From Escherichia phage Baskent_phicoli_1, in the sequence record PP766721.1: a DNA stretch of 39,500 bases. One strand, 5' to 3'. The notes below the pieces were generated by a model. The model saw only the letters and a list, made by a program, of their open reading frames with translations. It ran no database searches and was not told the DNA's origin. Each line of letters opens with the position of its first letter. The stretch's first letter is position 1. This document shows positions 5,121 to 9,831 of this stretch, one piece after another. A program made the translations under genes and the position numbers.

Positions 5121-5143
5121 ACTAAACTATCACTATAGGGAGA
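5121..5143 (+). promoter_or_regulatory. Phage RNAP promoter phi10 (full consensus), +1 G about 5138
   Basis: TAAACTATCACTATAGGGAGA directly upstream of major capsid gene with long leader and strong SD. Confidence 0.85.
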
Positions 5144-5243: not shown

Positions 5244-6293
5244 ATGGCAAACGTTCCGGGTCAGAAAATTGGTACAGACCAAGGTAAAGGCAAATCTAGT
5301 TCCGACGCTCTGGCGTTGTTCCTGAAGGTCTTTGCTGGTGAAGTCCTGACCGCATTCACTCGCCGCTCTGTAACGGCTGACAAGCATATTGTCCGTACCA
5401 TTCAGAACGGTAAGTCTGCTCAGTTCCCGGTCATGGGTCGCACCTCTGGTGTGTATCTGGCTCCCGGTGAGCGACTGTCCGATAAGCGTAAAGGTATCAA
5501 ACATACCGAGAAAGTGATTACCATTGATGGTCTGCTGACTGCCGATGTGATGATTTTCGACATTGAAGACGCGATGAACCACTATGACGTGGCTGGCGAG
5601 TACTCCAACCAGTTGGGTGAAGCTCTGGCTATCGCTGCTGATGGTGCGGTTCTGGCTGAAATGGCTCTCCTGTGTAACCTCCCGGCCGCATCCAACGAGA
5701 ATATTGCCGGTCTGGGCACTGCGTCAGTACTTGAAGTTGGTACTAAAGCCGACCTGAACACTCCGGCTAAGCTGGGTGAAGCAATCATCGGTCAACTGAC
5801 CATTGCTCGTGCGAAGCTGACCTCCAACTACGTTCCTGCTGGCGACCGATACTTCTACACCACGCCGGACAACTACTCTGCAATCCTCGCGGCTCTGATG
5901 CCGAACGCTGCTAACTATGCTGCGCTGATTGACCCAGAGACTGGCAACATCCGTAACGTGATGGGCTTCGTTGTTGTTGAGGTCCCGCATCTGGTGCAGG
6001 GTGGTGCTGGTGAGACCCGTGGTGACGATGGTATCTCTATCGCCTCCGGTCAGAAACACGCATTCCCGGCGACTGCTGCTGGCGACGTTAAAGTTGCTAT
6101 GGACAACGTTGTGGGTCTGTTCTCTCACCGTTCTGCTGTGGGTACTGTGAAGCTGCGTGACTTGGCGCTGGAACGTGACCGTGACGTCGATGCTCAGGGC
6201 GACCTGATTGTTGGTAAGTACGCTATGGGTCACGGTGGTCTGCGTCCTGAAGCAGCGGGCGCACTGGTTTTCACAGCAGCGTCAGCGGGTTAA
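5244..6293 (+). CDS. gp10A: Major capsid protein 10A
   Basis: 349 aa; LALFLKVFxGEVLTAF, KSAQFPV, KHTEKVITIDGLLTADV, EDAMNHYDV, LMPNAANYAALIDPE, RNVMGF, HRSAVGTVKLRDLALER, KYAMGHGGLRPEAAGA match T7 gp10A. Confidence 0.97.
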   Translation: MANVPGQKIGTDQGKGKSSSDALALFLKVFAGEVLTAFTRRSVTADKHIVRTIQNGKSAQFPVMGRTSGVYLAPGERLSDKRKGIKHTEKVITIDGLLTADVMIFDIEDAMNHYDVAGEYSNQLGEALAIAADGAVLAEMALLCNLPAASNENIAGLGTASVLEVGTKADLNTPAKLGEAIIGQLTIARAKLTSNYVPAGDRYFYTTPDNYSAILAALMPNAANYAALIDPETGNIRNVMGFVVVEVPHLVQGGAGETRGDDGISIASGQKHAFPATAAGDVKVAMDNVVGLFSHRSAVGTVKLRDLALERDRDVDAQGDLIVGKYAMGHGGLRPEAAGALVFTAASAG

Positions 6294-6556
6294 CGACCTT
6301 TAAGGCCCTCTCTACCGAGGGTCCTACCTTAGAGACGTATAGTTCTACGGTGGGAACCAGCTTGAAGGTTGACTTACCGGAGCTTTCAGATGTGACCGAC
6401 TGGTCGCTGCTTGATGTTACTACGCCTGATGGTGTTAGTTACTCCCGTAGAACCAACAGTCTCTACTTCAAGGCCACCTCTGGCGTGGAAGGTCTAGTGA
6501 TTGTTGAGTATGACGGTTCGCCTGTGCGTTCCTTCAACGTATCTTTCACAAACTAA
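6266..6556 (+). CDS. gp10B: Predicted -1 frameshift extension producing minor capsid protein 10B (slippery heptamer G GTT TTC at 6266-6272; -1 frame open to TAA 6554-6556)
   Basis: The -1 frame is open from 6251 across the 10A stop to 6556; heptamer sits 7 codons before the 10A stop, homologous to the T7 10A/10B site. Confidence 0.6.
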   Translation, partial: GFHSSVSGLTTFKALSTEGPTLETYSSTVGTSLKVDLPELSDVTDWSLLDVTTPDGVSYSRRTNSLYFKATSGVEGLVIVEYDGSPVRSFNVSFTN

Positions 6557-6558
6557 TT

Positions 6559-6598
6559 GAAACCCCTTGGGTGCCTTCGGGTGCTTGAGGGGTTTTTT
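6559..6598 (+). terminator. Tphi-like terminator for phage RNAP
   Basis: AACCCCTTGGGTGCCTTCGGGTGCTTGAGGGGTTTTTTG, near-identical in design to T7 Tphi (AACCCCTTGGGG...CTTGAGGGGTTTTTTG). Confidence 0.8.
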
Positions 6599-6613
6599 GC
6601 TTAAGGAGGGCCT

Positions 6614-7180
6614 ATGGCTCAATACATTCCACTGAATGCTAACGATGACTTAGATGCCATCAACGATATGTTAGCTGCTATCGGTGAACCAGCAGTCCTA
6701 CAGCTTGACGAAGGCAATGCTGACGTCTCGAATGCTCAACGTATCCTGCATCGTGTCAATCGTCAGGTCCAAGCTAAAGGCTGGAACTTTAATATCAACG
6801 AAGCTGCCGTCCTGACACCTGATGTCAAAGACAATAGGATTCGATTCTTGCCGTCATACCTTCGTGTAATGACCGCTGGTGCCACCAGCTACTACAGCAA
6901 CATGGGTGGATACCTGTACGACCTATCCACTCAGTCAACCACTTTCACCGACCCTATCACGGTAGAGCTTGTGGAGATGAAGCCATTCTCCGAGATGCCT
7001 GTGGTCTTCAGGGACTACATCGTCACTAAAGCTAGCCGTGAGTTTAACGCTAAGTTCTTCGGTAGCCCAGAGTCAGAGCTATACCTTCGTGAGCAGGAAG
7101 CAGAACTCTATCAGCAGGTTATGGAGTACGAGATGGACACTGGTCGCTACAACATGATGTCTGACATCGGGAGGGACTAA
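6614..7180 (+). CDS. gp11: Tail tubular protein A, gene 11
   Basis: 188 aa; position and size as T7 gp11 (196 aa). Confidence 0.88.
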   Translation: MAQYIPLNANDDLDAINDMLAAIGEPAVLQLDEGNADVSNAQRILHRVNRQVQAKGWNFNINEAAVLTPDVKDNRIRFLPSYLRVMTAGATSYYSNMGGYLYDLSTQSTTFTDPITVELVEMKPFSEMPVVFRDYIVTKASREFNAKFFGSPESELYLREQEAELYQQVMEYEMDTGRYNMMSDIGRD

Positions 7181-7407
7181 TGGCTAGTCACAACCTGAAG
7201 ATTCACCGCCAGCATTTTGGTCCGGTACAGCTAGGTCTAAAGACAGCAGAGCTTAGACTTAACGACCGGGACTTTAAGGTTGGTGACTGGCTTATCCTGA
7301 ATGAGTGGGACAACGGGTATACTGGACAACAGGTAGCGCGTAAGGTTGTCCACATTGCTGACGTTGGTGACATCGCTGAAGGATACGTCCTAATGAGTAT
7401 GATTTAA
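7180..7407 (+). CDS. DUF3850/ASCH-like small protein (extra gene, not in T7)
   Basis: 75 aa; HNLKIHxxHFxPVxxGxKTAELRLNDRDFKVGDWLILNEW fits the DUF3850 (ASCH/PUA-like) signature from memory; ATGA-coupled to gene 11. Confidence 0.55.
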   Translation: MASHNLKIHRQHFGPVQLGLKTAELRLNDRDFKVGDWLILNEWDNGYTGQQVARKVVHIADVGDIAEGYVLMSMI

Positions 7408-7416
7408 GGAGGGCCT

Positions 7417-9774
7417 ATGCCACTAATTACTCAATCAATCAAGAACCTTAAAGGTGGCATTAGCCAGCAGCCTGATATACTGAGGTTCTCAGACCAAGGC
7501 GAGGCACAGGTTAACTGCTGGTCATCCGAGAGTGATGGCCTCCAGAAGCGCCCACCTACAGTCTTCAAGAGACGTATTAACATCGACGTTGGGAGTAACC
7601 CTAAGTTCCACCTGATTAACCGTGACGAGCATGAGCAGTATTACATCGTGTTCAATGGGTCAAACATTCAGGTAGTTGACTTGAGTGGTAATCAATACCC
7701 AGTGTCAGGTGCGGTAGACTACGTTAAGTCCTCCAACCCACGAGATGACATCCGTGTCGTTACCGTGGCAGACTATACGTTCGTAGTTAACCGTAAGGTT
7801 GTCGTCAAAGGTGGAAGCGAGAAGTCACACTCTGGCTATAACCGCAAAGCACGAGCTTTAATTAATCTTCGTGGTGGACAGTATGGTCGAACCCTTAAGG
7901 TTGGAATCAACGGAGGAGTAAAGGTCTCGCATCAGCTACCAGCAGGTAATGACGCCGAGAATGACCCACTTATGGTGGACGCTCAGGCCATCGGTGCAGC
8001 TCTGAGAGACTATCTTGTTGTTGCGTACCCTACCTTCACGTTCGACCTTGGGTCTGGCTTCCTGTTAATCACTGCCCCTGAAGGGACTGACATTAACTCA
8101 GTGGAGACGGAGGATGGCTACGCTAACCAGCTAATAAGCCCAGTCCTAGACACTGTGCAGACAATCTCTAAACTGCCTCTTGCAGCTCCTAATGGGTATA
8201 TCATTAAGATTCAAGGTGATACAAACAGTAGCGCCGATGAATATTACGTGATGTATGACTCCAACACTAAGACGTGGAAGGAGACAGTGGAGCCGGGAGT
8301 TGTCACTGGGTTCGATGTCACCACAATGCCACATGCTCTGGTCAGACAGTCTGATGGCTCCTTTGAGTTCAAGACTCTGGATTGGTCCAAGCGTGGTGCT
8401 GGCAACGATGACACAAACCCTATGCCTAGCTTCGTGGATGCTGCGATTAATGATGTGTTCTTCTACAGGAACAGACTTGGGTTCTTGTCGGGTGAGAACG
8501 TAATCATGAGCCGTTCAGCCAGCTACTTTGCGTTCTTCCCTAAGAGTGTGGCGACACTGAGTGATGATGACCCTATTGATGTAGCTGTAAGTCACCCTCG
8601 AATCTCAATCCTTAAGTATGCCGTTCCGTTTAGCGAGCAGCTACTACTTTGGTCGGATGAGGTTCAGTTCGTGATGACAAGCTCTGGGGTACTTACCTCG
8701 AAGTCTATCCAGCTTGATGTAGGCTCAGAGTTTGCCCTAGGGGACAATGCCAGACCGTTCGCTGTAGGACGCTCAGTCTTCTTCTCAGCGCCTCGTGGGT
8801 CATTCACCAGCATTAAGCGATACTTTGCTGTAGCTGATGTGTCTGATGTGAAGGATGCCGATGATACAACTGGTCACGTACTGTCCTACATCCCTAACGG
8901 GGTGTTTGATATTCAAGGTACAGGTACTGAGAACTACATCTGCGTCAACTCTACAGGTGCATACAACCGAATCTACATCTACAAGTTCTTGTTTAAGGAT
9001 GGCGTACAGCTTCAAGCCTCTTGGTCACACTGGGAGTTCCCTAAAGATGATAAGATTCTGGCGTCTGCTTCTATTGGCTCTACCATGTTCATCGTTCGTC
9101 AGCACCAAGGAGGGGTAGACATTGAGCACCTTAAGTTCATCAAGGAGGCAACTGACTTCCCGTCAGAGCCTTATAGACTACACATTGACTCCAAGGTGTC
9201 TATGGTAATTCCAATTGGCTCATATAATGCAGACACATATAAGACTACGGTTGACATTGGTGCTGCTTATGGTGGCAACGCTCCGTCTCCCGGTCGGTAC
9301 TATCTGATTGACAGTCGGGGTGCTTATGTGGACCTTGGGGACTTGACCAGTATCTCTACTGTGGTTAGCCTCAACGGCGATTGGTCAGGACGCACAGTGT
9401 TCATCGGACGGTCCTATCTGATGTCCTACAAGTTCTCACGGTTCCTGATTAAGATTGAAGATGATAGTGGCACTCAGTCTGAAGACACTGGTCGTCTACA
9501 ACTTCGTCGGGCTTGGGTCAACTACAAAGACACTGGCGCTCTGAGACTCATTGTCAGAAACGGTGAGCGGGAGTTCGTAAATACCTTCAACGGGTACACC
9601 CTTGGGCAGCAAACCATCGGGACTACAAACATTGGTGACGGGCAGTATCGCTTCGCTATGAATGGTAACGCATTAACCACGAGTCTAACCTTAGAGTCCG
9701 ACTATCCTACCCCAGTGTCAATCGTTGGGTGTGGCTGGGAGGCGTCATACGCTAAGAAAGCTCGTTCCGTCTAA
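7417..9774 (+). CDS. gp12: Tail tubular protein B, gene 12
   Basis: 785 aa; size and position as T7 gp12 (794 aa). Confidence 0.93.
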   Translation: MPLITQSIKNLKGGISQQPDILRFSDQGEAQVNCWSSESDGLQKRPPTVFKRRINIDVGSNPKFHLINRDEHEQYYIVFNGSNIQVVDLSGNQYPVSGAVDYVKSSNPRDDIRVVTVADYTFVVNRKVVVKGGSEKSHSGYNRKARALINLRGGQYGRTLKVGINGGVKVSHQLPAGNDAENDPLMVDAQAIGAALRDYLVVAYPTFTFDLGSGFLLITAPEGTDINSVETEDGYANQLISPVLDTVQTISKLPLAAPNGYIIKIQGDTNSSADEYYVMYDSNTKTWKETVEPGVVTGFDVTTMPHALVRQSDGSFEFKTLDWSKRGAGNDDTNPMPSFVDAAINDVFFYRNRLGFLSGENVIMSRSASYFAFFPKSVATLSDDDPIDVAVSHPRISILKYAVPFSEQLLLWSDEVQFVMTSSGVLTSKSIQLDVGSEFALGDNARPFAVGRSVFFSAPRGSFTSIKRYFAVADVSDVKDADDTTGHVLSYIPNGVFDIQGTGTENYICVNSTGAYNRIYIYKFLFKDGVQLQASWSHWEFPKDDKILASASIGSTMFIVRQHQGGVDIEHLKFIKEATDFPSEPYRLHIDSKVSMVIPIGSYNADTYKTTVDIGAAYGGNAPSPGRYYLIDSRGAYVDLGDLTSISTVVSLNGDWSGRTVFIGRSYLMSYKFSRFLIKIEDDSGTQSEDTGRLQLRRAWVNYKDTGALRLIVRNGEREFVNTFNGYTLGQQTIGTTNIGDGQYRFAMNGNALTTSLTLESDYPTPVSIVGCGWEASYAKKARSV

Positions 9775-9782
9775 CTTATTGA

Positions 9783-9831
9783 AGGGCCTATAGATTTACC
9801 TTAACTATCACTATAGGGGACTATAGGCCCT
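9783..9831 (+). repeat. 11-bp perfect inverted repeat (AGGGCCTATAG / CTATAGGCCCT) enclosing promoter phi13
   Basis: Arms at 9783-9793 and 9821-9831 read directly; promoter core in the 27-nt loop. Confidence 0.8.
9799..9821 (+). promoter_or_regulatory. Phage RNAP promoter (phi13-like), +1 G about 9816
   Basis: TTAACTATCACTATAGGGGA. Confidence 0.75.

Follow-up and report, generated by a model that had tools for sequence, protein, structure and literature searches.

ASCH proteins of the GKTR (YqfB-type) and GKER kinds deacetylate N4-acetylcytidine (ac4C), both as the nucleoside and in tRNA, and the Lys and Glu of their conserved octapeptide form an essential dyad (bioRxiv 10.64898/2026.02.27.708502). 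The fold of the DUF3850 family was solved in 2009 (PDB 3iuw), and in phages and prophages a ParB-CTPase fold is frequently fused to DUF3850 (bioRxiv 10.1101/2025.10.10.680097). A DUF3850 gene is also already known and annotated in public Kayfunavirus genomes, where its GenBank labels are hypothetical protein, RNA-binding protein, DUF3850 domain-containing protein and activating signal cointegrator, and a small accessory ORF wedged between essential genes is an arrangement of a known kind. Our literature search found no functional study of DUF3850 or of the gene in K1F-like phages; a match to "gp11.5" was rejected as an unrelated K1E gene. Here we describe the locus in a further phage of this group and weigh what its product might do.

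Results

The window, by which we mean the whole 39,500-nucleotide stretch of Escherichia phage Baskent_phicoli_1 that was analysed (PP766721.1), belongs to a K1F-like phage of the genus Kayfunavirus (Autographiviridae, Studiervirinae). Its nearest genomes are those of Escherichia phages TH20, TH16 and PH1061, at ~94% identity over 88% of the first 25 kb, and around the locus it shares 97% identity with Klebsiella phage Pkp-1 and Escherichia phage PE3-1. In comparison with the canonical T7 map the window appears to be circularly permuted, since its late genes come first. Gene 11, encoding tail tubular protein A, lies at 6614-7180 on the plus strand (Pfam Tube PF17212, E=3.9e-46; PHROG 446), and gene 12, encoding tail tubular protein B or nozzle, at 7417-9774 on the same strand (Pfam Phage_nozzle PF25675, E=0, profile positions 1-793 of 794). 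Between the two is an extra 75-aa ORF at 7180-7407 (+), with an ATG start and a TAA stop at 7405-7407, exactly as the original prediction had described it. In T7, for which the prediction had placed gene 12 straight after gene 11, a spacer of just 23 nt lies between the end of gene 11 (24818) and the start of gene 12 (24842). The coupling to gene 11 had been read as ATGA and has to be corrected to TAATG, as the junction is GGG AGG GAC TAA TGG CT, with the gene-11 stop at 7178-7180, the ATG at 7180-7182 and one base common to both. Read off the sequence, a Shine-Dalgarno (SD) motif for the ORF, GGAGGG at 7170-7175 (+), is contained within the final gene-11 codons GGG AGG GAC, and the SD of gene 12, AAGGAGGG at 7406-7413 (+), overlaps the TAA of the ORF both in the sequence and in the table of junctions.

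The K1F-type promoter consensus used for the window was derived from the annotated promoters of PE3-1. Allowing up to 3 mismatches to TAAACTATCACTATAGGRA, 11 promoters were found, all on the plus strand (1296, 4117, 5123, 9801, 17078, 22430, 25710, 29256, 30986, 32078 and 34465), as opposed to 0.03 expected by chance. The last of these upstream of the DUF3850 gene is a phi10-like phage RNA-polymerase promoter at 5123-5141 (+), an exact match to the consensus TAAACTATCACTATAGGGA, and a phi13-like promoter with 2 mismatches follows at 9801-9819 (+), downstream of gene 12, the equivalent place to that of T7 phi13; the consensus scan of the window returned no phage promoter between 5141 and 9801. 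A terminator scan located a Tphi-like hairpin and T-run at 6574-6600 (+; hairpin 6574-6591) just upstream of gene 11, which is the position annotated as phiTE in PE3-1 and corresponds to Tphi of T7, directly before gene 11. Sigma-70-like and terminator-like sites occurred at chance level, with none flanking the DUF3850 ORF, and the GC content of the ORF is like that of its neighbours. The lack of a promoter of its own, together with the stop and SD overlaps, would make the ORF part of the late gene 11-12 message, and the overlaps point to translational coupling with both genes. Without its own promoter and terminator the ORF is not an autonomous "moron" cassette, and this half of the proposal that it is an accessory regulator or a moron falls away, while its accessory character is borne out by the natural non-carriers described below.

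In the same late region, the capsid gene (5244-6293) is followed in the -1 frame by a 68-aa ORF at 6350-6556 (+) that matches PHROG 7473, a group of unknown function. As the corresponding part of PE3-1 is annotated as being reached through a slippery-sequence frameshift, this ORF is probably a gp10B-type capsid extension and not a separate gene.

The predicted assignment of the 75-aa protein to DUF3850/ASCH held in a Pfam HMM search, with both families above their cutoffs. The match to DUF3850 (PF12961; E=1.9e-19, 70.1 bits against a cutoff of 22.9) places residues 4-73 on profile positions 2-76 of 77, and that to ASCH (PF04266; 26.2 bits against 21.2) covers profile positions 2-61 of 103, the N-terminal 60%. 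The DUF3850 assignment is thus far beyond chance. The protein also matched PHROG 986 ("RNA-binding protein", E=2.8e-35) and PDB 3iuw, its sole solved relative by sequence (E=1.2e-10 in a single-sequence search, 4.6e-19 when a profile was used); it shares the fold of this solved family representative. A BFVD fold search matched only unannotated DUF3850/ASCH phage proteins, an AlphaFold2 model built with 22 homologues had a mean pLDDT of 85, and PADLOC and NCBIfam scans of the protein gave no significant match. A full-length ASCH domain has ~100-120 aa with C-terminal elements and this protein stops at residue 75; it is a shortened, minimal and stand-alone ASCH/PUA-like beta-barrel.

The codons at 7234-7269 (+) specify the ASCH octapeptide GxKxxExR as G19-L-K21-T-A-E24-L-R26, which is of the GKER type, followed by the DUF3850 signature N28-D29-R30. 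K21, E24 and R26, like the N28-D29-R30 signature, were invariant and G19 nearly so in our alignment A1, and all are conserved at 96% or above across 150 diverse family representatives, the best of the profile-search matches, drawn from 50%-identity clusters. In these best 150, conservation reaches 90% or more at 13 polar positions (H4, K7, K21, E24, R26, N28, D29, R30, D36, E42, T48, Y69 and S73), and the window protein has all 13. It is slightly acidic (pI 6.4, net charge -1), in line with the median pI of 6.5 among stand-alone family members. So many invariant polar residues in a protein that is not basic speak for a defined pocket, enzymatic or for a flipped base, and against a general RNA-binding surface. 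K21 and E24 correspond to the catalytic Lys and Thr/Glu of the ac4C amidohydrolases. F13 and Y69 are candidates by position only for the roles of Glu74 in YqfB and of Tyr14 and Tyr81 in TthASCH, and Y69 as the replacement of TthASCH Tyr81 or YqfB Glu74 is a positional guess.

The coding status of the ORF was assessed from pairwise Nei-Gojobori comparisons among 11 K1F-like loci (protein identity 45-100%), in which the median dN/dS was 0.128 for the DUF3850 ORF, 0.139 for gp12 and 0.047 for gp11; these ratios are approximate because dS is saturated in many pairs. Judged by them, the ORF is under purifying selection, with a constraint similar to that on gp12 and weaker than that on gp11. Even alleles of only 45% identity keep to a length of 74-76 aa, and none of the carriers examined has a disrupted frame. 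In each of the 20 distinct junctions from carriers, gene 11 ends GGG AG(G/A) GAC TAA, which provides a GGAGG SD 5 nt before the overlapping ATG. This embedded SD is missing from all nine non-carriers with an 11-13 nt spacer, eight of which end gene 11 with GGT CGA GAC TAA, encoding the same Gly-Arg-Asp, and one (L025) with AGC CGA GAG TAA; each of the nine has a separate SD within the spacer. The junction SD pattern is the strongest sequence-level sign that the ORF is translated, and we regard it as virtually certain that it is a real DUF3850 gene.

A survey of relatives, as the original prediction had proposed, showed that the gene is widespread in the K1F-like phages and also naturally absent from some of them. 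By tblastn, the DUF3850 protein was found at 60% identity or above in 180 phage records, and gp11, which at the same threshold served as the marker of the K1F-like clade, in 222, so that about 81% of deposited K1F-like genomes (~180 of ~222) carry the gene. All five carrier records that were checked (PE3-1, CR44b, Kc166A, LET1 and phage B1) are assigned to Kayfunavirus, and carrier hosts include Escherichia, Salmonella, Klebsiella, Enterobacter, Citrobacter, Kosakonia and Pectobacterium. The order Tube-DUF3850-nozzle recurs in metagenomic relatives at 67-83% identity. In Citrobacter phage CR44b the gene is named 11.05 (L023:3567-3788) and occupies the same slot with a 45%-identical allele, in which K7 and N28-D29-R30 are lost and E24 is replaced by D; compared with the window copy it has a dN/dS of 0.35, a sign that selection may have been relaxed or the function changed.

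The gene is missing from 11 of 25 K1F-like loci in IMG/VR, as well as from T7, K1F, ZG49 and others, and the non-carriers are of two types. In the first, genes 11 and 12 are separated by a short spacer with its own SD; this was the case in SH3 and SH5 (an 11-nt gap by the published coordinates) and in the IMG/VR loci L011 and L015-L025. The second type is a clean absence, in which the carrier-type gp11 ending is kept and the gene-12 ATG occupies the position of the DUF3850 ATG, and was found in K1F, ZG49, phiYIO1-1, BUCT788, IME177, pO2, vB_EcoP-R1 and Zappy. In K1F and ZG49, whose gp11 is 99.5% and gp12 ~97% identical to those of the window, the stop codon of gene 11 and the ATG of gene 12 overlap (GACTAATGCC), with the embedded SD kept (ZG49, L002:3560-3570; K1F, L118:1935-1945), the K1F-type junction being GACTAATGCCACT. 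These clean absences look like the outcome of excision between the short flanking repeats GGAGGGACTAATG and GGAGGGCCTATG, as inferred from the junction sequences.

In a comparison of the window with locus L111, nucleotide identity is 91-98% throughout gene 11 and 60-80% from 7178 through gene 12. There is thus a sharp mosaic breakpoint at ~7178, at the boundary between gene 11 and the DUF3850 gene, which means that the small gene travels with the nozzle allele and not with gene 11. As a separate observation on the nozzle, gp12 of a K1F-like contig from Logan (SRR17238234; L114:3740-6745) has 1001 aa, compared with ~787, and Pfam GDSL-lipase/SGNH domains interrupt its Phage_nozzle match, so that the tail nozzle may have an esterase built into it.

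For the family as a whole, a word-indexed homologue search reached no more than 31 close relatives, and it was the exhaustive profile search, against 1.84 billion representatives of 50%-identity clusters, that revealed the family, with 16,078 representatives at E<=1e-3 and 5,282 at E<=1e-10. When the window proteins of at least 100 aa were compared by tblastn with 68 non-K1F-like DUF3850 loci from IMG/VR, there were no matches, so these loci are without detectable similarity to this T7-like genome. The nearest sizeable neighbours of their DUF3850 genes were DNA methyltransferases (D12 Dam, N6_N4), primases, helicases, NinG, HNH nucleases and HTH/sigma-like regulators, and no structural genes were among the most frequent neighbour families of the 68 loci. 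Fusions were seen among 85 long representatives, with DUF551 in 12, a MazG-like dNTP pyrophosphohydrolase in one and a LexA DNA-binding domain in one. In addition, the viral contig IMGVR_UViG_3300010261_000168 (L054:3530-4228) has a 232-aa single ORF in which Dam (PF05869, E=1.8e-35) is followed by a C-terminal DUF3850 domain (E=5.4e-28); this predicted Dam-DUF3850 fusion directly links the family to DNA methylation.

Discussion

The best overall explanation of these data, which we hold tentatively and at slightly less than an even chance, is that the gene encodes a late cytoplasmic accessory protein with a modified-base pocket and possible N4-acyl-cytosine-type hydrolysis. It would be transcribed together with genes 11 and 12 on late phage-polymerase transcripts that pass the Tphi-like terminator, and its translation would be coupled via TAATG, an SD contained in the end of gene 11 and a stop codon that lies on the gene-12 SD. 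The protein would most likely act in the infected cytoplasm, and not as a tail part or tail-assembly factor. Its pocket would comprise H4, K7, K21, E24, R26, N28-D29-R30, D36, E42, Y69 and S73 and would accommodate a modified nucleobase, be it part of RNA, of DNA or of a free nucleotide. Hydrolysis of an N4-acyl-cytosine-type substrate, for example ac4C in host tRNA or nucleosides, would then be probable, and is proposed because the catalytic Lys-Glu(-Arg) GKER octapeptide of the ASCH N4-acetylcytidine amidohydrolases is kept. The parts of this explanation differ in strength. That the product is a modified-base pocket protein is reasonably probable from the pattern of conserved residues. That it is specifically an ac4C-type hydrolase, by analogy with the ASCH enzymes, is the leading specific hypothesis but doubtful, and its boldest form appears quite unlikely: a late minimal ASCH enzyme that would erase the ac4C of the host's elongator tRNA-Met or free cytidine nucleotides of N4-acyl groups so that they can be salvaged or, alternatively, a compact modified-base binder directed against a defence system.

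Several observations speak against the enzymatic reading. The C-terminal third of the canonical ASCH domain is missing from the predicted protein; the family's company of DNA methyltransferases, primases, helicases and ParB-like folds, with a Dam-DUF3850 fusion among them, points to DNA at least as much as to tRNA; late expression has no obvious rationale for the editing of host tRNA; and at least one lineage, that of CR44b, manages without the full motif, having lost K7 and the NDR signature and carrying E24D.

The alternative that survives best is that the protein is a DNA-modification reader or anti-restriction accessory, whose pocket would recognise a methylated, otherwise modified or unmodified target base and thereby counter methylation-dependent or restriction-type defences of the host. 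PUA-like EVE, SRA and ASCH modules have such a defence-related role in other systems. The single-ORF Dam (PF05869)-DUF3850 fusion, although from one viral contig, is in keeping with this possibility, and so is the presence of D12 Dam methylases, an N6_N4 methylase, primase/helicase, NinG and HNH genes near DUF3850 in the 68 non-T7 viral loci; furthermore, the fusion partners of the ParB-CTPase fold in phages are either DUF3850 or DNA methyltransferases (bioRxiv 10.1101/2025.10.10.680097). However, the four D12-methylase neighbours (L096, L098-L100) come from nearly identical elements and really amount to one observation, and a methyltransferase gene was not seen in the annotated stretches of the K1F-like phages examined. 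Late expression also fits the protection of incoming DNA poorly, PADLOC and NCBIfam gave no match and the protein is slightly acidic. The family's genomic company supports a DNA-modification reader about equally well as a hydrolase, and we consider the reader unlikely.

Somewhat weaker is the case for a non-catalytic RNA-binding regulator, which late in infection would attach to RNA of the phage or the host and adjust its translation or stability. The first predictions for PUA-like and ASCH folds made them RNA binders, and PHROG 986 and RefSeq attach the label "RNA-binding protein" to the gene, a label which is nevertheless a transfer by homology. ZmASCH is reported to act on ssRNA (PMC5615036). 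On the other hand, stand-alone ASCH catalytic domains gave no tRNA shift in EMSA, whereas a separate HTH domain did (bioRxiv 10.64898/2026.02.27.708502). A pI of 6.4 and net charge of -1, with a stand-alone family median pI of 6.5, do not favour RNA binding either, and the density of invariant polar residues resembles an active site more than a binding surface, so that we regard this role as rather unlikely.

The location of the gene between both tail-tube genes, its apparent co-transcription and translational linkage with them, and the divergence of DUF3850 together with gp12 in the mosaics raise the possibility that the product is associated with the tail or virion, as a minor tail component, a gp11/gp12 assembly chaperone or a passenger ejected into the cell. 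Yet the gene is not conserved wherever a gp11-gp12 tail is made (T7, K1F, ZG49, SH3 and SH5 are without it), and it is absent, apparently through clean excision, from natural phages whose gp11 and gp12 have 97-99% identity to those of the window, which indicates that the tail does not need it. CsCl-purified virions of the K1F-like Citrobacter phage SH3 contain gp11 and gp12 by LC-MS/MS, and those of SH4 contain gp12 (PMC4925675); neither phage has the DUF3850 gene, so these virions contain tail-tube proteins without it. In phage B1 the gene is ORF40, and the proteomics of that phage identified six gel bands only. Moreover, the family is found elsewhere in replication or nin-type modules, with no structural genes among its most frequent neighbour families, and the window protein has no similarity to any T7 structural protein. 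A role in the tail or virion is therefore improbable, and the gene is very probably an accessory one and not a tail component.

Finally, a spurious or decaying ORF without function, to which its dispensability in nature and the loss of several family-invariant residues from the CR44b allele might be thought to point, is effectively refuted, with a negligible residual chance, by the full-length Pfam match, a dN/dS of ~0.13, the intact frame in examined carriers and the adapted SD within gene 11.

The remaining interest lies in the biochemistry of the DUF3850 family, which is very large and phage-enriched. The Kayfunavirus copy offers a convenient model, being stand-alone, of 75 residues and carried by a genetically tractable lytic phage, for which natural clean-deletion relatives such as K1F and ZG49 could be isogenic-like controls. 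The intact ASCH Lys-Glu motif, tied by recent work to ac4C deacetylation, adds to its value as a model. Were the protein an ac4C eraser, no smaller eraser of an RNA modification than DUF3850 would be known, and the phage would have in it a means to edit the epitranscriptome of its host.

In comparison with known systems, the closest are the public Kayfunavirus copies, such as those of PE3-1 (PE3_037, "RNA-binding protein"), Pkp-1, vB_EcoP_FFK3 ("DUF3850 domain-containing protein") and JSS1 ("activating signal cointegrator"), which are the same gene, in the same gene 11/12 slot and with the same TAATG; the protein is 100% identical in several records, nothing of substance differs and the window represents another strain. 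The solved relative 3iuw, an 83-aa "activating signal cointegrator" of Enterococcus faecalis from structural genomics, is of bacterial or prophage origin. The ASCH ac4C amidohydrolases (E. coli YqfB, 9kyf; T. thermophilus TthASCH; human EOLA1 and TRIP4-ASCH) have ~103-121 aa, whereas the window protein, with its putative activity, has 75 and lacks the C-terminal secondary structure (helices and strands) in which YqfB Glu74 and TthASCH Tyr81 lie, but has in addition the invariant signature of N-D-R, H4, D36 and E42. The ParB-CTPase-DUF3850 and Dam-DUF3850 fusions contain the same DUF3850 domain; in contrast to them, the domain in the window stands alone, in the structural gene block of a lytic T7-like phage.
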